The position numbers and the translations under genes were made by a program. DNA of 64,000 nt from Kiritimatiellia bacterium (lineage in GTDB: Bacteria > Verrucomicrobiota > Kiritimatiellia > RFP12 > UBA1067): NCBI GenBank assembly GCA_050949565.1, contig JBMNFY010000017.1, positions 1,600,001 through 1,664,000 of the forward strand. Reading direction: 5' to 3'. The notes beneath the pieces were generated by a model, which did not search any database, was not told the origin of the DNA, and saw only the letters and a program-made list of their open reading frames with translations. This document shows, piece after piece, positions 24,704-62,203 of the stretch (position 1 is its first letter; each line of letters starts with the position of its first letter).

Positions 24704-24917
24704 AACACCCTCCTGACTTTTTACCAATTACAAGGCAAGGAGAGCACACGCCCGCAAGCAATGCGTCCACGTTATTAAAAATGTAATATCTTGAACATGT
24801 GCGCCGCGCCGCGCCGCACGGACGTGCGCCGCGGATTTAGGATTTAAGATTTAGGAGTTACCGGCACCGCCGACAGGATCGGCAGTCCCGGCAGTCCCCC
24901 CAAAACCTCTGACCCTT

Positions 24918-24935
24918 AAATACCTGTCCCTTAGT
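24918..24935 (-). repeat. RAYT-associated repeat copy (ACTAAGGGACAGGTATTT)
   Basis: AAATACCTGTCCCTTAGT on the + strand, identical to copies at 59244, 61078 and 61206. Confidence 0.85.
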
Positions 24936-25036
24936 GACCATTCCAACTGCCCGCTTCAGGGTAAAATGTTCATTTCATTTTTAACACACGTCATATAATA
25001 TAGTGCCAACTGTGTGGTTTCGGTGTTTTTGGGACA

Positions 25037-46780: not shown

Positions 46781-46825
46781 GACAACTAAGGGACAGGTAT
46801 TTAGACGGCTGGTATTTAGACGGCT
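46781..46825 (+). repeat. RAYT-associated repeat copy with an adjacent 15-bp tandem duplication
   Basis: GACAACTAAGGGACAGGTATTT at 46781-46802; GGTATTTAGACGGCT at 46796-46810 and 46811-46825. Confidence 0.88.
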
Positions 46826-55300: not shown

Positions 55301-56690
55301 CGCCGTGTACGTCCACCTTCTCCGTGGCGAACCACTCGACGCCCGCCGTGATGCCGAACGCGCCTTGGTGCGAGAGCAGAGCCGACAGCGCCACGCGCAT
55401 ACGGGCATAACATTCGCCGCGCGCGGCCAGGCGGTTGTTGTCGTGCGTCTCGGCGAAGTGGATCAGCGGGCCGCAGCGTTCCGCCAGCGGGATCGCGCGC
55501 GGCAGGTACCAGTCGAATGCGCCGCGATCTTCGGTCTGGAACAATTCGGAGTAGGCCCAGTCCAGATTGGCTACGGTGAGCAACTCTTCGGTCACCTCGA
55601 CCTTGCCGCCCAGCCCTTCCAGCATGAAGATGGTGTCGGGGAACTCTTTGCGCACACGGGCCACGATATAGGTCCAAGTCTCGACCGGGATCATGTAGCC
55701 GGCATCGCAGCGGAAACCGTCCACGCCTTGGCTGCACCAGAAGAGAAACACCTTGGCCATGTAGGCGCGCAATCGTGGGTCGCTGTAATCCAACTCCACC
55801 AAGTCGGCCCAGGTCACGCCCCACGCGCCCGGCGAGATGAACTCGCCGTCGGGTCTACGCCGGAACCAGTCCGGGTGGTGGGTATGGAGCGTCGCGGCCC
55901 AGCCGGTGTGGTTGGCGGGCAGATCCATAAAGAGACTGCCGCCGCGACTGTGTACGGCATCGATCAGCTCGCGGAATTGATCGAGCGGCGTGGCGTACGT
56001 ATCGAACTCCGCCAGCGCGGGATCGACCGAAAAGAAATCGAGCGCCGCGAAGGCCGACCCGTAGCGGCCCATGCGCGCGTAGGTGGTCGGCACCGGATGC
56101 ACCGGCAGAAGCTGCAGGATGCGGAAACGCTGGCGCCCCATGATGGTGTCGAGCTGGCGGATAAGATCGCGGAACGTTCCCGATGGCGGGATGACGGTGT
56201 AGCCTTGCCGGTCGAGCGCGGCCTCGTGTTCCCTGAGTTCCGGCGTGCTCGGGTTGCGATGCCGTGCCGCGCCGAACTGGCGCACGAAGGCGGTGTACAT
56301 GGTATTGGCGCAGGCGGTGTGGGCGGGGCCGACCTTGATGCGCAGGTTGTCGCCCGCCGGCCACTCCGGCACCGACGAGCCCTCGGCAAAGAAACAGGCC
56401 TTGCCCTCAAAGATGCCGACTTCGGTCAACGGCACACGCACGCGGAACACGCCCGGCGCTTCCTCGCGCATCGGGATATCGTGCCAGTCGCGTGCCAGCA
56501 CCGGCTCGCCCGATTCAGTGCTGGCGATCAACTCGCGGCGTCGCACGCGCGCCATGCCGAGGTTGGTGCGGAAGACGGCGCGTCCCGGCCGGGGCCGGTC
56601 GAGCCGCAGTGTCACTTCAAAGAGATCTCCGGCCCATTTCAAATGAGGCGTGTCGGCTGATGGGGTCTGTTGCATAGTGGTGTACAGCAT
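52323..56690 (-). CDS. Glycogen debranching enzyme (GH13 domain fused to amylo-alpha-1,6-glucosidase)
   Basis: GH13 motifs DLPANHT, DGFRCDAG, ETHDN; GDE motifs IAGYPWFLDWGRDT, TWMD, YHNGTAW, QAWGV. Confidence 0.9.
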   Translation of the reverse strand: MLYTTMQQTPSADTPHLKWAGDLFEVTLRLDRPRPGRAVFRTNLGMARVRRRELIASTESGEPVLARDWHDIPMREEAPGVFRVRVPLTEVGIFEGKACFFAEGSSVPEWPAGDNLRIKVGPAHTACANTMYTAFVRQFGAARHRNPSTPELREHEAALDRQGYTVIPPSGTFRDLIRQLDTIMGRQRFRILQLLPVHPVPTTYARMGRYGSAFAALDFFSVDPALAEFDTYATPLDQFRELIDAVHSRGGSLFMDLPANHTGWAATLHTHHPDWFRRRPDGEFISPGAWGVTWADLVELDYSDPRLRAYMAKVFLFWCSQGVDGFRCDAGYMIPVETWTYIVARVRKEFPDTIFMLEGLGGKVEVTEELLTVANLDWAYSELFQTEDRGAFDWYLPRAIPLAERCGPLIHFAETHDNNRLAARGECYARMRVALSALLSHQGAFGITAGVEWFATEKVDVHGASALNWDAPHNQVAEIARLNALLETHPAFGPGTRLRPVQRGDGPFLAVLRDIDTDAAANGSALLVLVNLDCAHPQTAHWDEAAFHGTKAWDLVTGEAFALTPGAGLALAPGRACCLTLCAEDVAAVDAAAAAVVEPAALSRRRRNLMALRVKLHLAAVDNGDDDERFACTCEPDELGAAMTADPDAFCADAPNQLPRRTVWYWPEDQRRQVMLPEGHVLLARADAPFRAELKSGRYTQARERAVRLDDSTWGAFLIVPPYDAALDGTRAEQRSLVMTVFTDAGVQRAVSDLLVLPPAGAARAVSRVSGVRVRNEPDFCTVLSNSAGAMAQARAAWGEVRSQYDCLLAVNPDPRVPADKMIFWTRCRTWLRYRGYSHAIEAACLDAFTTDPAGRFAEWCFKVPCGIGRWVPLRFRLELEPGVNRARLRVSRPAVGACGLDAAQAGLLEADEPVKVIVRPDIEWRSFHHKTKAFMGPEHEWPAAVHPLARGFTFEPTDGMRLGIEATAGAFHIEPSWAYMVAHPEEQERGLDGHSDLFSPGWFDLLLDDGGEITLKAGDNSQSAIRNPQSATFNAQHATPTGALATIPETLSQALSLYVVRRDALKTVIAGYPWFLDWGRDTLIVLRGLIADGRHDDALEILREFGRFEERGTLPNIIHGNTVGNRDTSDAPLWFCVAAGDLMEAMGDRKVLDVACGSRTLREVLVSILTYYRDGTPNGIHMDPASGLIYSPSHFTWMDTNYPAATPREGYPVEIQALWIASLRLVARKIDAEWNALAERATSALARLYVVKEGWLADCLRAKAGEPAERALQEDTLRPNQLLALTLGVPLAPELARTMISACERLLVPGAIRSLADRPVLADCAVWHNGTLLNDPHRPYQGRYLGDEDTRRKPAYHNGTAWSWPFPLYVEALVQLYGDSARATGLSLLGSAIEQLNRGCLGHPPEICDGDAPHAARGCCAQAWGVSELLRVWLRITRGGKSPAAPYKPGSCRG

Positions 56691-56756
56691 AGCCGAACAC
56701 GCAGCGGAAGGCTATGCGATTCCGGAGTGAGGTTTTTTGAGACGGTGATGTCCCCG

Positions 56757-56785
56757 TTGACAACACTACGCCAATGGCGTACACT
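56757..56785 (+). promoter_or_regulatory. Sigma70 promoter with an overlapping palindromic operator for the TA operon
   Basis: TTGACA-17 nt-TACACT; inverted repeat TACGCCA-A-TGGCGTA at 56767-56781. Confidence 0.75.
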
Positions 56786-56791
56786 TTTCGC

Positions 56792-57115
56792 ATGGTAATT
56801 GTGGAGACCAGCGTGTTCACTCGCCGTATCGGAAGCTGCATGTCCGACGAGGAATATCGGGCGTTGCAGATGTTTCTTGTCGGGAACCCCTGTGCAGGAA
56901 GTGTTATTCCGGGCGGCGGAGGCCTGAGAAAATTACGCTGGTCAAGTTCAGGAAGAGGTAAACGCGGTGGGACGCGCATCATTTACTACTGGTGGGTTCC
57001 AGAAACGCTATTCATGCTGTTTCCATACCGTAAGAATGAGACAGAAGACTTAACAACGAACCAGGTACGACAGCTTAAAGCGGTCGTCGAGGAGTGGCTT
57101 CATGAAGAAAAATGA
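56792..57115 (+). CDS. RelE/HigB-family toxin
   Basis: VETSVF, NPCAGSVIPGGGGLRKLRW..GRGKRGGTRIIYY, YRKNE..DL. Confidence 0.9.
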   Translation: MVIVETSVFTRRIGSCMSDEEYRALQMFLVGNPCAGSVIPGGGGLRKLRWSSSGRGKRGGTRIIYYWWVPETLFMLFPYRKNETEDLTTNQVRQLKAVVEEWLHEEK

Positions 57116-57392
57116 TTTTAACGAGTTGCTCGCTAGTGTCAAAGAGGCGGGAAGCATCAAGAAGGGCGAAAAGCCTGCAAGCCGCCGCTTTGAGTTTTCG
57201 CCACCCGACATCAAGAAGGTGCGGCGGTCGCTGAACGTCACTCAAGAGGTGTTCTCGCGCATGATCGGTGTGAGCGTTGGCACCCTTCAGAACTGGGAGC
57301 AGGGGCGGCGAGAGCCGGAAGGTCCCGCGCGGGCACTCCTCACTGTGGCCGCAAAGAATCCGCAAGCCGTACTATCCGCCCTTCACGAATAA
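57102..57392 (+). CDS. HigA-type HTH antitoxin
   Basis: VRRSLNVTQEVFSRMIGVSVGTLQNWEQGRREPEGPARALL; overlaps the toxin. Confidence 0.9.
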   Translation: MKKNDFNELLASVKEAGSIKKGEKPASRRFEFSPPDIKKVRRSLNVTQEVFSRMIGVSVGTLQNWEQGRREPEGPARALLTVAAKNPQAVLSALHE

Positions 57393-57493
57393 ACGCATAA
57401 CCGCAGTCAGTTGGTGACAGTGCGGCGGCGAGTGGTATTCCGCGCGCCGCCGCTTTGGAAGCACAAGTGTGGTGGCGAGGCGGCGTGTCCCCA

Positions 57494-57515
57494 AATTACC
57501 TGTCCCTTAGTTGTC
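57494..57515 (-). repeat. RAYT-associated repeat copy
   Basis: AATTACCTGTCCCTTAGTTGTC on the + strand (one mismatch to consensus). Confidence 0.85.
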
Positions 57516-57581
57516 CCGCAGGGCACTGGGACTGGACCGGCCTTGCCGGGTGGGGCAGCGCACCCGGCGCTTATTCCAATT

Positions 57582-57914
57582 CTACGCCTTGCTTCCCCAT
57601 ATGGCTTTGACGTATTCGTTTGATTCGGCATATGGACCGTACAGCGTTTCGCGGAGACCTCTTGGTGCCTTCTTGTCACAAGACGTCCATTCCACAAAAA
57701 CCAACCGATATGGTTTCAGACTTGTGGTATCTACAACGATCCCTGTGGCAATGATACGCCCGCCAGTCTTGAGTGCGATACCATCGCCCTTTTTGATCTG
57801 TTCGAGACGACCTTGAGTCGTTTCCGCATTCGCAAACCAGATTCCATGTTTGCGGCACAATTCATGAACAGGCCGGTTGTCCACCTTGGCGTGGGCGATC
57901 CAATACTGAGTCAT
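57582..57914 (-). CDS. Hypothetical protein (low GC)
   Basis: 110-aa ORF coupled (TAATG) to the upstream lipoprotein; IKKGD.IALK..IIATG.V resembles PUA/EVE-like segments (inference). Confidence 0.55.
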   Translation of the reverse strand: MTQYWIAHAKVDNRPVHELCRKHGIWFANAETTQGRLEQIKKGDGIALKTGGRIIATGIVVDTTSLKPYRLVFVEWTSCDKKAPRGLRETLYGPYAESNEYVKAIWGSKA

Positions 57915-58411
57915 TACTCGGCCCAGCCTTTCTCTGTTTTCGACAGCGACATAGATGAGTTGAATCCAAGTGTTTTTTCTTTATATCCAGCCTCGGAAAA
58001 GCCGTGCGCATTTGCAATTCCTTCTGCTATTTCAGGAGGCAACATTTTTCCATCCTTCTTCCAGCCGTAATCCCCTTTGACTTTGGAATCGTTGGGGACA
58101 GGGGCCGCGCTAAACCGACCTCCGGAGCCTCCGAACACAGCCATTGCTCGGCGGTCCCACATACAATCATCTGTGAAGGTGATTTCGTACGTGAAATCCA
58201 TCTCGTAGAATTTCTCCCCGGTCATCGGCACCTTCTTCATTGCCCCGTTTGTCTTCTGAAACGCGGTCAACTTGTTCAAGCCCTTTGACTGTGACTGAAT
58301 CTTCGATTCGAGTATCTTCTTCGCATCGATCTCCGAAGGTTTTCCCGAACAACCTGTGAGAACCAGTGCACTTGTTAGTACCAGCAACAAAGATCTGATT
58401 CCGTTCATCAC
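57914..58411 (-). CDS. Hypothetical lipoprotein (low GC)
   Basis: Signal peptide with lipobox LVLTGC; GGAG upstream. Confidence 0.65.
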   Translation of the reverse strand: MMNGIRSLLLVLTSALVLTGCSGKPSEIDAKKILESKIQSQSKGLNKLTAFQKTNGAMKKVPMTGEKFYEMDFTYEITFTDDCMWDRRAMAVFGGSGGRFSAAPVPNDSKVKGDYGWKKDGKMLPPEIAEGIANAHGFSEAGYKEKTLGFNSSMSLSKTEKGWAE

Positions 58412-58653
58412 TCATCTCCCAACCGCTTCTGCGTTTTTTAGTATCGGACCGTGCGGTTTACGGCTCCGACAGTGGATAAGATAATGCGTTTGATCTGTTA
58501 CGCACGCATGGTGCATACCATTCAGTCGCGTTCGGATTGCCGACACGACTTCTTCCGCTCATTGTCGCTTGTTCATGTTGATCCTTTCTCCGGTCGACGC
58601 TAAGACACGAAGCGTTGTGCGACCGATATTGCCAACGCCATTTAATAAGTGAA

Positions 58654-58845
58654 TTACTGTTTTTTTATGAGCAACAGTTTTGAAATCAAGTAAACGCCAA
58701 CAGCCGTCAATATAATGCCGAACCCGCCATCATCGAAGCGATATAAGTTCATTCCTTCAACTTCACTCAAATTTTGCTTAATGGTCAAAGCAACGATTAC
58801 CGCGCCCGCAAGACTTGCAATTGCGTAATGAACGGATTCCTTCAT
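58654..58845 (-). CDS. Small two-TM hypothetical membrane protein
   Basis: RBS-like AAAGGG; two hydrophobic stretches; AT-rich. Confidence 0.5.
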   Translation of the reverse strand: MKESVHYAIASLAGAVIVALTIKQNLSEVEGMNLYRFDDGGFGIILTAVGVYLISKLLLIKKQ

Positions 58846-59085
58846 AGTGTGCCCTTTCTATGACAATGACATGTTCTCACAGTAGTGAAATCACTACCAT
58901 CCCACAGGGTAAACCGGCAACTCACCGGCTCCCATGGTTGGCACGCATTGTGCGGGGGGGGGGTAAAAGTCAACCCAAAACTTTCTAACTTTCTACCCAG
59001 AACGCCACCCACATTACCAACAGATTTTTTTGGGGGCAGGGCTGGCCGCAAGTCGCAAGTCGCGGGTCGCGAGTCAACCTTCGTA

Positions 59086-59261
59086 GACAACTAAGGGACA
59101 GGTATTTTGAACCAAAAGGTTGTGTTTCCGATCACCGGTTTTAAGGTTCGATTCAAACGCTTTTATCTCTGATCCTCTGCTCATATGATTCTCTCACCCA
59201 ACGTTGCTCCTCACCAAACACCGCCTACCCTCCGGAGTTTTTAAAATACCTGTCCCTTAGT
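59086..59261. repeat. Inverted pair of RAYT-associated repeats enclosing about 136 bp (REPIN/MITE-like)
   Basis: GACAACTAAGGGACAGGTATTT (59086-59107, +) and AAATACCTGTCCCTTAGT (59244-59261). Confidence 0.85.
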
Positions 59262-59321
59262 TAGTAGTTAGTTAGTAGTTAGTTCAGTTGGTTGTCCGTT
59301 AGTTTTTGTGGGAAATGTTTG

Positions 59322-59364
59322 TTGACACCCATTCCATACTTTTCGATCATGCTTCCATACTTTT
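59322..59364 (+). promoter_or_regulatory. Putative promoter/operator of the AbrB-PIN module
   Basis: TTGACA at 59322; direct repeat TTCCATACTTTT at 59332 and 59353; GGAGG follows. Confidence 0.55.
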
Positions 59365-59375
59365 GGAGGTGAAGT

Positions 59376-59600
59376 GTGTTGACTGCGACCGTTGCTGAAC
59401 GAGGGCAAGTGACGATTCCCAAGGCCTTGCGTGACCGTTTGGGTATCAAGCCGGCGACCGTGTTGGCGTTCAGTGTGAAAAATGGCGTTCTGACGGCTGT
59501 GAAAGTCGTGCCGAATGATCCCGTGGCCGATGTCACGGGATGTCTGGGGGCGGACAGGCGTACGGATGAATGGGTGGCTGAACTGCGAGGCGCACCGTGA
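59376..59600 (+). CDS. AbrB/MazE/SpoVT-family antitoxin (VapB-like)
   Basis: TVAERGQVTIPKALRDRLGIKP. Confidence 0.88.
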   Translation: MLTATVAERGQVTIPKALRDRLGIKPATVLAFSVKNGVLTAVKVVPNDPVADVTGCLGADRRTDEWVAELRGAP

Positions 59601-59783
59601 TCACCGCTGTCGACACGAATGTGCTGTAACAAGACGCCGCGCAGTGATCGAGTGATCGCCGATTTTTTGGTCGCGGCTCATGCGGCCGAGTGCGCAGACC
59701 GTTTGTTGACGCGTGATCGCGGATTCTACCGCACACACTTCAAAGGGCTCTCCCTTGTCGATCCACTGCGTTTGAGCGACTAA
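59597..59783 (+). pseudogene. PIN-domain (VapC-like) toxin remnant with a stop and an internal deletion
   Basis: GTGA overlap, then MITAVDTNVL*; shortly after, RVIADFLVAAHA..ADRLLTRDRGFYRTHF. Both PIN ends are present in about 190 bp and the middle is missing. Confidence 0.8.
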
Positions 59784-59799
59784 ATATCTGCCCCTTAGT
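59782..59799 (-). repeat. Degenerate RAYT-associated repeat downstream of the transposase
   Basis: AAATATCTGCCCCTTAGT (two mismatches to consensus). Confidence 0.7.
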
Positions 59800-59837
59800 C
59801 GTGGTTCCGGTTGTGGTCTGCCGCACCGCCACTGCTA

Positions 59838-60848
59838 CTATGCGCAAGGAAGCTGAACCGGCGCGATGCGGAGCGCGCGTGCCGTCCGCAACTCGCCCCA
59901 TTCGGCGAAACGCATCCTGCGCGCGCCGTCCTTGCGCTTCGGGCCGAAGAGCCGCCGGTTCTGTTCGAACACCCCGTCGACAAACGCCCTGCTGCCCAAT
60001 GCCATCCCGTCCGTGAAGTAGCGTACCCGGCAGTGCAGCACCTGCGGGAGCGTCAGCCTCCCGCCCTCATCGAGCACGTGCGCCACCTCCGCCGCACTGA
60101 ACCCGGGCCGGACGACCTGCCCGCTCTCCTCGACCGCGCGCCGTTCCTCCCCGGCTACGTAGAGCAGCTCACGGCAACTCTTCTGAACCTGCCGCCACTC
60201 GCCAACCCCCGCGCCGTGGACCGCCGCCAGTCCTTCACGCGCCAGTCTGCCGCCCGCGCATGCCTCGCCGTAGCCGCCCCAGCGGTAATCCTTGGGATCC
60301 ACGACAATCCCCGCGCGCACCGGGTTCAGGTCGATATACGCCGCCACCGCCGCCAGCGCCCCCATGGCGCCCTCGATCAGCACGCTTTTGAAGCGGTCTT
60401 CCCAAAGCGTCCCTTTGCGCCCGTGGCGGCCGTTGTAGGACATGCTGTAGCGTTGCTTGAGCGTCTTCACGAACGCGCTCAGGTCGTACATCCGCGCCCG
60501 CAGCCGCTCCTGCTGCTCCTCGACCAAGTGCGCCAGCCCCATCCGCCGCCACTCCGCCCACTGCCGCTGGACGCCCGCGACATGCTTCTTGCCGTAGAGC
60601 AGCGTCATGCGCCGTACCAGTTCAGCCTCGTCCACCTCAGTCCGCTCACCCACCTCGACCAGCAGGTGGAAGTGGTTCGACATCACTGCATAGGTTAGTA
60701 CCCGCACCCCGCAGAACGCCTCCGCGCGCCGCATGATCCCGCGGAAAATCTCTTTCTCCACATCATCCATCTTGAACGCCCGATCCACGATCCGGCTCAC
60801 CACGTGGTAATACCCCGTACCCTCAGCCTTCACCCTCGCCTGCCGCAT
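59838..60848 (-). mobile_element. REP-associated tyrosine transposase (RAYT; IS200-like Y1 HUH endonuclease), long C-terminal type
   Basis: MRQAR..YYHVVSR, HUH motif YAVMSNHFHLLV, GTLWEDRFKS, catalytic YIDLNPVRAGIV.DP.DYRW; RBS GGAGG before ATG 60848; flanked by the repeat on both sides. Confidence 0.92.
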
Positions 60849-61077
60849 GCCTTCCTCCTTCCCGTTCGAACCCCATACCCACATCCGCTCCCATCGGAGC
60901 CTCGCCCTGCCCGTCCGGCCGCGCACCCCCCAAAAAGCTCTCTCAGACAAAAACGTCCGAAAAGCACCGTCAAAAAAACACGCTTCCATTCCCAGAAGCA
61001 CCTCGGCGCTGCCCCGAGCACAGAACACCGTACACTTTACCACCTTCCGCATCTGAGCTACAAGCCTCATTTCTACT

Positions 61078-61223
61078 AAATACCTGTCCCTTAGTTGCAG
61101 AAGAGCCGCCGGTTCCGTTCGAACTCCCCGTCGACAAACGCCTTGCCGCCCAAGCACCATCCCGTCCGTGAAGTAGCGCACTCGGCAGCGCAACACCTAG
61201 TTACAAAATACCTGTCCCTTAGT
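61078..61223 (-). repeat. Two direct RAYT-associated repeats (61078-61095, 61206-61223) enclosing a 99-bp diverged copy of RAYT coding sequence
   Basis: 61100-61198 aligns by eye to 59946-60043 with about 10 substitutions and one indel. Confidence 0.9.
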
Positions 61224-61318
61224 TGAAATTGTCGAGACTTGGCAAGATGAAACCAAGTACGTATACTGGTGCTCTTACTGTCTGGATTAGCCATTCTGTA
61301 AGCCGATACGACACAACC

Positions 61319-62203
61319 ATGACCTTTTTCGAAAAACTTCAGAGCGGTCACCCGACCATTTCGTTTGAATTCTTTCCGCCCAAGACGCCGGAAGGCTGGG
61401 CGCGGCTGTATGCGACGCTGGCCGAAACCGCACGTCTGAACGTGGATTTGGTCTCGGTGACTTACGGTGCTGGCGGCAGTACGCGCGAAAACACCGTGGA
61501 CTTGGTGGCGTCGTTGCAGAACAATCTGGGGTTGCACGCCATGGCGCATCTCACTTGCCTCGGCCATTCGCAGGTGGATCTCTCCAGAATCCTCGACCGG
61601 CTGGCGGAAAAGAACGTGCCGGCCATCATGGCTCTGCGCGGCGACCCGCCGCAGGGGGAGAGCAGTTTCCGCCCGCATCCGTATGGATTCGCCTATGCCA
61701 GCGACCTGATTGGCTTCATCCGTGATGGCTGGCCGCAGTTCAAGATCGGTTGCGCCGCCTACCCAGAGGGCCACCCAGAATCTTTTGCGGAGGGCCAGCC
61801 GCGTTCGCCGGCGCGCGACATCACCTTCTTGAAGCGCAAGCAGGAGAACGGCGCGGACTTTGCGGTCACACAGCTCTTTTTCAGTAACTCGGCTTACCAT
61901 GACTTTGTTGCGCAAGCTCGTGATGCGGGGGTCACGATCCCGCTGCTGCCCGGCATCATGCCGCTGAGTTCGGCCAAGCAGATCGAACGCTTTGTCGAGC
62001 TTTCCGGTTGCTCGATCCCGGACGCCCTGCGGCAGGCGGCCGCCGCCGAGGATGTCGAAGAGGCCGGTTTCTGTTTTGCGCTCGATCAATGTCGCGACCT
62101 GCTGGCGCATGGTGCGCCGGGCATCCATCTCTACACACTCAATCAGTCCTCGCTCTCCGGCCGTATCTTCGCTGCGCTGCGTGCGGAAAATGCCGGTTTG
62201 TAA
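61319..62203 (+). CDS. metF: Methylenetetrahydrofolate reductase
   Basis: ISFEFFPPKT, SVTYGAGGST, AHLTC, LRGDPP, AYPEGHP, TQLFF, HLYTLN. Confidence 0.96.
   Translation: MTFFEKLQSGHPTISFEFFPPKTPEGWARLYATLAETARLNVDLVSVTYGAGGSTRENTVDLVASLQNNLGLHAMAHLTCLGHSQVDLSRILDRLAEKNVPAIMALRGDPPQGESSFRPHPYGFAYASDLIGFIRDGWPQFKIGCAAYPEGHPESFAEGQPRSPARDITFLKRKQENGADFAVTQLFFSNSAYHDFVAQARDAGVTIPLLPGIMPLSSAKQIERFVELSGCSIPDALRQAAAAEDVEEAGFCFALDQCRDLLAHGAPGIHLYTLNQSSLSGRIFAALRAENAGL

Follow-up and report, generated by a model that had tools for sequence, protein, structure and literature searches.

Which DNA does a RAYT-like transposase recognise outside the classical repetitive extragenic palindromic (REP) systems, and what becomes of the DNA beside its sites? 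The locus described here offers a concrete candidate for such a substrate, a motif whose core is conserved across phyla. The locus lies in a stretch of 64,000 nt (the window) from a Kiritimatiellia bacterium (GCA_050949565.1; contig JBMNFY010000017.1, hereafter C17; positions 1,600,001-1,664,000 of the forward strand), where a gene for a Y1 HUH transposase is found in a 3.7-kb island together with six copies of a short repeat. A preliminary description of the window had proposed that the enzyme inserts or shuffles foreign DNA at the CT end of the repeat, and that the island is an integron-like cassette platform.

The reading preferred here, to which we give a probability of about 0.6, is that a TIRYT/RAYT-type Y1 HUH transposase has its home here, together with its cognate site, which serves as both end and target. 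With the same confidence, this site is taken to be a non-palindromic motif of ~25 nt with the core AAGGGACAGGT, which is arranged in direct orientation around the gene and has spread to ~86 mostly intergenic places. Seen in this way, the 3.7-kb island, the largest among 17 motif clusters, is a repeat-driven variable region with toxin–antitoxin remnants and orphan genes; a dedicated integron-like capture platform is not supported as a description of it.

Copies of the motif in the window and in the genome

The transposase gene occupies 59838..60848 on the minus strand and encodes a RAYT/TIRYT-type protein of 336 aa (Pfam Y1_Tnp, E 5.8e-11). The repeat around it was traced with the 18-mer ACTAAGGGACAGGTATTT, which matched the whole window eight times versus 0.00 expected from 100 shuffles. 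The 18-mer was exact at 59090(+), 59244(-), 61078(-) and 61206(-), had one mismatch at 57494(-) and two at 59782(-), and was found exactly at two places elsewhere in the window, 24918(-) and 46785(+). All six repeat copies of the preliminary description were recovered at their positions and on their strands, and the gene at 59838-60848, the RAYT fragment, the 136-bp spacer (between the 18-mers ending at 59107 and starting at 59244) and the low-GC orphan genes were likewise confirmed.

As full-length motifs, the two copies next to the gene are a degenerate one at 59777..59803 (-; two mismatches), which is direct and lies 35 bp downstream of the stop codon, and one at 61073..61099 (-), about 225 bp upstream of the start and on the gene strand. 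The position of the upstream copy is conserved in orthologues; the downstream copy overlaps the stop codon of a vapC remnant and is kept in the sister species G002. The cluster ends with 57489..57515 (-), a variant reading ...GGTAATTTG, on the side of a RelE/helix-turn-helix (HTH) gene pair, and with 61201..61227 (-) on the side of metF. Between these ends are also 59086..59112 (+), inverted relative to the other five, and 59239..59265 (-), which is followed by a tandem tract with an 11-nt period (AGTTAGTTAGT). All six copies, and a solitary one at 24913..24939 (-), were matched by both the 18-mer and the weight matrix described below; another solitary copy, at 46781..46807 (+), is followed by its duplicated 3′ half (GGTATTTAGACGGCT twice). 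Adjoining the motif at 59239-59265, the tract AGTTAGTAGTTAGTTAGTAGTTAGTT (59262-59300) is a repetition of the 5′ end of the motif itself, which reads AACTAA on the opposite strand.

The motif has a consensus of ~25 nt, G[AG]C[AG]AC[TA]AAGGGACAGGT[AG]TTT[AT]GAC, and sharp edges, the information content being at background within 3 nt on either side. In the source genome (G000; 4.66 Mb, 21 contigs, 60% G+C), the 18-mer was present in 78 copies at ≤3 mismatches, on 13 contigs. A census with a 27-nt weight matrix at a threshold of >16 bits returned 86 copies, 78 of them scoring at least 28 bits, versus 0 in the reversed genome that served as control; one copy is possibly counted twice, as contigs C12 and C16 carry it with identical flanks. 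According to our own simple codon-usage gene caller (2,959 genes, 84% coding), 72 of the 86 copies fall between genes, another 10 reach a gene end and 4 are contained in a called open reading frame (ORF); the next downstream gene shares the strand of the motif for 48 copies and has the opposite strand for 33. The 86 copies occupy 56 places, comprising 39 singletons and 17 clusters, and the six-copy window cluster is the largest in the genome, the next largest having four. The island is thus no unique, dedicated array. Most motif intervals are, moreover, short and non-coding, and gene orientation in the window intervals is mixed.

No hairpin was evident in the motif beyond, at most, a 4-bp CTAA/TTAG stem. 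The pairing position showed no covariation (T,A 32; A,A 23; T,T 15; A,T 2), and the best stem across relatives averaged 3.99 bp vs. 3.66 bp in shuffles. A hairpin reading of the motif was therefore ruled out for the source genome, its stem potential being at background, in agreement with the earlier remark that the repeat has no obvious hairpin. The 5′ T of the motif, part of the CT where cleavage had been placed (AACT|AAGGG), is present in 49 of 78 copies, and relatives carry ACAAAGGG, ATAAAGGG or ACAGAGGG at this position; the junctions reported below fall near CAGGT or at the motif 3′ end, so that this cleavage site was not upheld.

Other short repeats also crowd the genome, mostly GC-rich hairpins in 100-215 copies, for example the hairpin GTGGCACGGGCAAGATGCCCGTGCCAC (~215 copies), CATGGGCGGGACGCCCATG (~165) and GGGCAAGCAGACGCTTGCCC (~140), besides the tandem units CATGAAACACATGAAACTTCATGAAA and TCCTAAATCCTAAA (~147 copies each); window 59021-59080 is one example of such repeats. 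None of them flanks the RAYT gene.

Association of the motif with the gene clade in relatives

The source genome was compared with two sister species (G002 and G004, whose assemblies are 56% and 78% complete), two genomes of the same genus (G001 and G003) and two of the same order (G038 and G032). At the orthologous loci of seven relatives, the motif is found 40-190 bp upstream of the gene start, on the gene strand and often twice in tandem. A downstream copy is direct in G000 and G002 and inverted in one G038 locus, and the motif is also inverted around the gene at locus L012.

The survey was extended to the Planctomycetes–Verrucomicrobia–Chlamydiae (PVC) superphylum, where 80 loci among >500 matched were examined, from Kiritimatiellia, Lentisphaerae/Victivallales, Verrucomicrobiales, Akkermansia and Opitutales. 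The commonest upstream 7-mer was GGGACAG, which belongs to the core of the motif. Its exact form occurred within 300 bp upstream in 25/64 loci on the gene strand and in 10/64 on the opposite strand, and within 400 bp downstream in 13/74 loci inverted and in 6/74 direct, compared with 0/57 on each strand of a distal upstream control; in gene bodies, it was present in 1/80 on the gene strand and 0/80 on the opposite strand. Co-occurrence of the repeat with this RAYT clade, which the preliminary description had named as a test, was accordingly found (25/64 upstream vs. 0/57 in controls). These results show that the motif accompanies the long RAYT clade across the PVC superphylum.

The two genomes of the same order carry the gene in many copies. 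G038 has 34 RAYT matches and 66 motif copies; two of three compared element copies share 1,131 bp with a direct CTTAAAGGGACAGACTATTTAAG at both ends and unrelated sequence outside, and the third has only the left end in common. Here, the gene and a pair of direct motif copies form a multicopy unit that behaves like an insertion sequence (IS). G032 has 52 RAYT matches, with one subfamily flanked by inverted GTGTCAGRCTRTTACACTTGACAT and another having several inverted ...AAGGGACAGgcc... copies. Many of the RAYT homologues of these two genomes stand at contig ends; they are active-looking IS forms of the same family. A search for empty sites of the G038 elements in its congener G029 was abandoned at 64-75% identity, the two being too divergent.

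Within the genus, the motif itself differs in abundance. Exact 15-mers numbered 49 in G000, 23 in G004 and 13 in G002, while a wider motif pattern returned 3 copies in G001 and 4 in G003, of which 3/3 and 2/4, respectively, lie just upstream of RAYT genes. As nearly all motif copies of G001 and G003 adjoin RAYT genes, the solo copies are a lineage-specific amplification. The genomes can be arranged as a natural series, with active-looking IS forms in G038 and G032, the gene mostly with its own motif in G001 and G003, and an amplified motif in G000, G002 and G004.

Features of the transposase

The start at 60848 is consistent with homologues of ~340 aa, which number in the thousands and are labelled 'REP element-mobilizing transposase RayT' or 'transposase' from Kiritimatiellia. 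The protein scored below the cut-offs of the REP_Tyr_transpos model of NCBIfam (58.6 vs. 80 bits) and of the transpos_IS200 model (16.7 vs. 55 bits). His59 and His61 of the HUH motif and Tyr171 (Y-I-D-L-N175-P, that is, Y-x3-NP) are invariant or nearly so in 14 homologues and invariant in 54, and His61 and Tyr171 are 110 residues apart. An AlphaFold (AF2) model (predicted local distance difference test score, pLDDT, 88.2; predicted template modelling score, pTM, 0.87) gave its best fold match to E. coli TnpA-REP (4er8_A; E 3.9e-6; TM 0.72, target-normalised), followed by the ISDra2 and IS608 transposases. The model predicts a helical insertion after the HUH strand at residues 74-117 (helices 74-85, 87-102 and 106-117) and an extra, mostly helical region at residues 191-336. 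This C-terminal region had no Pfam match at E≤10, and a protein-atlas lead was dropped at a score of only 0.76.

By tblastn, the source genome holds one full copy of the gene, an adjacent fragment and a distant Y1 gene on contig C8 (27.5% identity; C8:242532-242906). The fragment (61096..61205, minus strand) is internal, covers about residues 270-302, is frameshifted and has motif copies on both sides; it is 88.2% identical to the resident gene over 102 nt, and 93.1% identical to the gene of G002.

Clusters, cargo and differences between sister species

Neighbouring motif copies less than 3 kb apart were direct in 26 of 30 pairs and inverted in 4 (binomial p = 6e-5), a few of the direct pairs being evident tandem duplications. 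Comparison of flanks showed 23 copy pairs with a common 5′ flank right next to the motif but no common 3′ flank, vs. 2 pairs with the reverse, and nine copies terminate a hairpin-rich repeat unit of ~100 nt. Judging from this asymmetry and the nine unit-ending copies, recurring units tend to have the motif at their 3′ end.

Most intervals are 50-430 bp long, non-coding and filled with other repeat families. In those above 350 bp, the matches were to a HigA-type antidote (E 2e-29), a MazE antitoxin (E 1e-5), a DUF6036 nucleotidyltransferase, an ADP-ribosylglycohydrolase (E 7e-62) and part of a further Y1 gene; there are also several ORFs with no family match, some of which appear by eye to have signal-peptide- or lipoprotein-like N-termini. 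The DUF6036 gene belongs to a direct array of four motifs at C4:29140-31880 (L167), in which a 160-aa piece of another Y1 transposase (E 2.5e-7) is also found, a second transposase remnant between motifs. No gene-bearing cargo common to two arrays was found, a 155-bp non-coding block being the sole shared module.

Differences between sister species were found at several motif loci. At C17:224997-227021, G000 has four direct motifs separated by three unrelated segments (1,247, 254 and 416 bp), and G004 has a single motif, whose 5′ flank is that of the first G000 motif and whose 3′ flank is that of the fourth, so that the crossover lies within the motif. The outgroups G005 and G006 have no motif at this site and a different neighbour gene, so the event was not polarised. 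In G000, the ADP-ribosylglycohydrolase gene is enclosed by two direct motifs; between the same outer flanks, G004 has a single motif and a different 230 bp. G004 further carries a one-gene insertion of ~690 bp with the motif at its end and the junction ...GGGACAGGT|GTTTTGGG, vs. an empty site in G000. In G002, the RAYT remnant is absent, with 20 bp between the two upstream motifs, and both vapB and vapC have internal breakpoints at which motifs stand. Where tandem copies are partial, the break is around ACAGG|TATTT.

At the window locus itself, G003 lacks the whole island, and its metF adjoins a 1455-aa gene. The outer limits of the island relative to G003 are not at motifs, which disagrees with breakpoints at the repeat as far as the island edges are concerned.

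Proposed mechanism and its alternatives

A possible course of events can be inferred from the sequence. The enzyme would cut one strand within the motif, probably close to its CAGGT centre or else at its 3′ end, and the 5′ end would be held on Tyr171 until it is rejoined to another motif copy or a motif-like half-site. With the motif as both the 3′ end of the moving unit and the preferred target, copies would pile up head to tail, and the DNA between or beside them could be inserted, deleted or duplicated.

A number of results weigh against this reading. The usual Y1 recognition by a hairpin and a guide is not evident in G000. Whereas IS608-type single-strand transposons show a strand bias, no replication-strand bias of motif orientation was found on the 1.97-Mb contig. 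The census of half-sites gave 9 and 23 observed vs. 12 and 16 in controls; with half-sites at control level, the proposed cut site rests on a handful of junctions. Despite its 23 exact motif copies, the G004 assembly, 78% complete, had no RAYT match. In a manual reading of 25 G004/G002 motif loci against G000, with overlapping categories, ~9-10 kept the motif at the orthologous site, only ~7 had a breakpoint within ~35 bp of the motif and ~11 lay inside larger unalignable segments. Ordinary recombination between 25-bp direct repeats, with deletion of the DNA in between, would explain the one-versus-four polymorphism equally well. Metagenome contigs (Logan; four runs from four studies, 2016-2025) were colinear with 56600-58962 and 59484-61400, the only differences being an 11-bp tandem-repeat change at 59257 and the length of a G10 tract. 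Change of content with breakpoints at the repeat, as anticipated in the preliminary description, was seen cleanly at the one-versus-four locus, with its crossover in the motif but insertion indistinguishable from deletion, and on one side only at two more loci (the ADP-ribosylglycohydrolase gene and the ~690-bp insertion); the four metagenome runs showed none. The circular junctions for which that description had asked were not seen in these contigs either, in which rare forms are invisible. A back-joint 61098>59045 (17 nt between) was rejected as a circle junction, being the paralogous locus C17:1777547.

The capture platform was considered in a fuller form, in which the HUH enzyme excises cargo with one motif as a circle and adds it at a motif already in place, so that ordered same-direction arrays of foreign genes arise. 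We regard it as unlikely. Equally doubtful are its wider consequences, namely that a Y1 HUH enzyme runs orientation-specific capture of units (cargo plus 3′ motif), excised from a single strand, with neither tyrosine recombinase nor hairpin, widespread in PVC bacteria, and that the RAYT gene is itself one unit of arrays which grow and shrink at many chromosomal sites. Such capture would account for the 26 direct pairs of 30, for repeated or variable units having the motif at their 3′ end, for the one-versus-four orthologous site with its three unrelated cargo segments and junction in the motif, and for cassette-like interval ORFs (HigA-type antidote, MazE, DUF6036, ADP-ribosylglycohydrolase and unmatched ORFs), among which the RAYT gene sits as one such unit. 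It agrees poorly with 39 of 56 motif places being single-copy, with intervals that are mostly 50-430 bp, non-coding and made of other repeat families, and with the mixed gene orientation relative to the motif. Nor was any gene-bearing cargo found in two arrays, any circle junction in metagenome contigs, or any promoter or attI-like fixed entry point, and the island edges relative to G003 are off motifs. The solo motifs might instead be remains of a formerly multicopy G038-type IS (motif–gene–motif) whose gene was lost by direct-repeat recombination, as in solo long terminal repeats, with the resident RAYT as the last copy, no movement at present and the rearrangements due to ordinary host recombination between short repeats. 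This decay is quite improbable in our estimate. A full element with direct repeats does exist in G038, a RAYT remnant lies between two window motifs, the locus is stable across the four metagenome runs, and direct-repeat deletion accounts for the one-versus-four polymorphism. However, a single RAYT remnant of the clade stands in the genome against 86 motifs, 78 of them at 28 bits or more, and the gene is intact with all invariant residues present; same-direction arrays with unrelated cargo, the 23-vs-2 flank asymmetry and gene-bearing insertions ending in the motif are left unexplained.

An altogether different role, as an operator or host-factor site of the RAYT promoter whose dispersed copies were co-opted for regulation or chromosome organisation, appears very improbable. 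The orthologues do carry the motif 40-190 bp upstream, directly before a conserved cTTGc-N17-TAAGGT-like stretch that looks by eye like a promoter, and the congeners have it almost only there (3/3 in G001, 2/4 in G003). Yet a promoter scan returned no sigma-70-like site on the RAYT strand (59700-61350), copies show no clear orientation preference toward genes (48 same strand vs. 33 opposite), many relatives have downstream or inverted copies beside the gene, and the homology of the G038 elements starts and stops at the motif. The preferred reading, a transposase with a cognate site as its end and target, would, if the direct arrays form by motif-to-motif strand transfer, mean that integron-like gene arrays can also arise along a second route with an unrelated mechanism. 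If they do not, the motif is still a clear example of a transposase site becoming a genome-wide repeat that shapes variable regions.

Relation to known systems

TIRYT genes are described as resembling RAYT genes but of greater length, with inverted repeats on either side; many of these contain GGGG[AT][CG]A[CG], and the TIRtron repeats are stated to form, in some genomes, moderately abundant dispersed families, single or clustered (Di Nocera et al., 2013; PMC3733652). In the relevant passages of a later survey, TIRYT is equated with TnpA-Y1 subclass 2.1, in which subclass 2.3 is embedded; subclass 2.3 has a median of 325 aa, a HuH-Tyr distance of ~110 aa and a conserved 55-aa insertion between beta3 and alphaC, and no associated DNA structures are reported there for subclasses 2.1 and 2.3 (Quentin et al., 2018; PMC6006769). 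A full-text literature search for TIRYT/TIRtron returned only these two papers, and one on Kiritimatiellae repeats and transposases returned nothing on this motif.

As far as these passages go, the closest published kind is the TIRYT/TIRtron class together with TnpA-Y1 subclass 2.3, a precedent that the preliminary description did not name. Like the TIRYT genes characterised there, the present gene is a longer RAYT-like Y1 gene (336 aa, with a C-terminal extension) flanked by short non-REP repeats. The core AGGGACAG agrees with the TIRtron consensus GGGG[AT][CG]A[CG] at 7/8 positions, a comparison with the consensus only and not with the published repeat sequences, and exact GGGGACAG occurs in some G000 copies and at several PVC loci. 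TIRtron repeats are given as inverted, whereas copies in G000, G002 and two in G038 are direct; inverted arrangements were found at L012, in G032 and at 13/74 PVC loci. The TIRtron passages contain no PVC or Kiritimatiellia lineage, no 25-nt form, no cargo arrays and no motif crossovers, and the supplements may list PVC cases. With subclass 2.3 as outlined in the survey, the protein shares a length of ~325-340 aa, the 110-residue HuH-Tyr spacing, a helical insertion of ~45-55 aa, Y-x3-NP and a long group-specific C-terminal region, a likeness by description and not by tree; it differs from that outline in the conserved flanking motif evident here and in its PVC hosts. New, then, are the direct instead of inverted organisation, the motif at the 3′ end of repeated units and the one-versus-four array with its crossover in the motif.

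The REP/RAYT systems (REPtron, REPIN) resemble the locus in a single-copy Y1 gene flanked by a repeat abundant in extragenic DNA, and in the Y1 HUH core with the 4er8 fold. They differ in that the present motif is not a GC-rich palindrome and has no GTAG-type tag and no inverted doublets (REPIN/BIME), and in that the protein remains under the NCBIfam equivalog cut-off (58.6 vs. 80 bits). TnpA proteins of the IS200/IS605 family are short (~130-150 aa), and their elements are multicopy and have subterminal hairpins. The Y1 HUH fold is shared with this family (IS608, ISDra2), and gene and sites are multicopy in G038 and G032; however, there are no subterminal hairpins here, the protein is twice as long, tnpB is absent, the gene is single-copy in G000, and the ends in G038 are identical direct repeats.

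Integron arrays consist of same-direction short sites between unrelated small genes, including toxin–antitoxin genes, and their attC sites are imperfect palindromes of 57-141 nt with paired core sites. Same-direction sites, toxin–antitoxin cargo and an array length that varies between relatives are features in common. In contrast, the present motif is 25-27 nt long, non-palindromic, scattered over the genome and without a fixed entry site. In place of the IntI tyrosine recombinase that adjoins an integron array, a scan of the 9 ORFs between 56.7 and 61.3 kb of the window returned no integrase match. Excision or joining of DNA between direct nick sites, and carriage of adjacent DNA, are known from HUH relaxases, rolling-circle Rep proteins and the one-ended transposition of IS91/ISCR; these precedents are Y2 or relaxase types acting at origins, whereas the present enzyme is a Y1 type. 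To our knowledge, neither nick-site recombination nor carriage of adjacent DNA has been shown for a Y1 RAYT-like enzyme.

Other features of the window

Within the island, the preliminary description had recognised a VapBC-like module. Its vapB, encoding a MazE/AbrB-type antitoxin, is present (59376-59600, plus strand; Pfam MazE_antitoxin, E 6.6e-8), but the PIN toxin gene is a truncated remnant, the two together spanning 59376..59783 (+). The PIN match fails the Pfam cut-off (E 0.0078), and the gene has an internal deletion of ~238 bp relative to the intact VapBC paralogue at C8:215176-215865. This paralogue is also found in G004, and a moving VapBC cassette was rejected, as the G004 locus is orthologous to the C8 paralogue and not to the window copy.

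Three low-GC ORFs of 110, 165 and 63 aa (57582..58845, minus strand; the last at 58654-58845) had no Pfam or NCBIfam match. The 165-aa ORF presumably has a lipoprotein-like N-terminus, with an LTGC motif judged by eye, and the 63-aa ORF is membrane-like in our reading. The interval 57512-59089 has 49.7% G+C vs. 60% for the genome. A G10 tract at 58944-58953, ~100 bp upstream of the 63-aa ORF, varied by +1, -1 or -2 between metagenome contigs, and may be phase-variable or else assembly noise. The 11-bp change at 59257 was a deletion in run X12, located in the tandem tract beside the motif at 59239-59265. Just outside the first motif, and within the segment missing from G003, a RelE-like toxin gene (E 1.5e-7) and an HTH (Xre/MqsA-like) antitoxin gene (E 6e-9) overlap by 14 bp (56774..57392, plus strand).

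An Rfam scan of 56500-61500 at E≤1 gave only a chance snoRNA match (18.7 bits), and the motif corresponds to no known RNA family. The sole sigma-70-like call in 59700-61350 was TTGGCA-17-TATACT at 61239-61267(+), upstream of metF and 12 bp from the outermost motif (61201..61227). The region upstream of metF differs in G003, where the island is absent, and the island may supply the metF promoter. Finally, the cumulative GC skew of C17 reaches its minimum at window ~40000 (C17 ~1,640,000), and a replication origin may lie inside the window.

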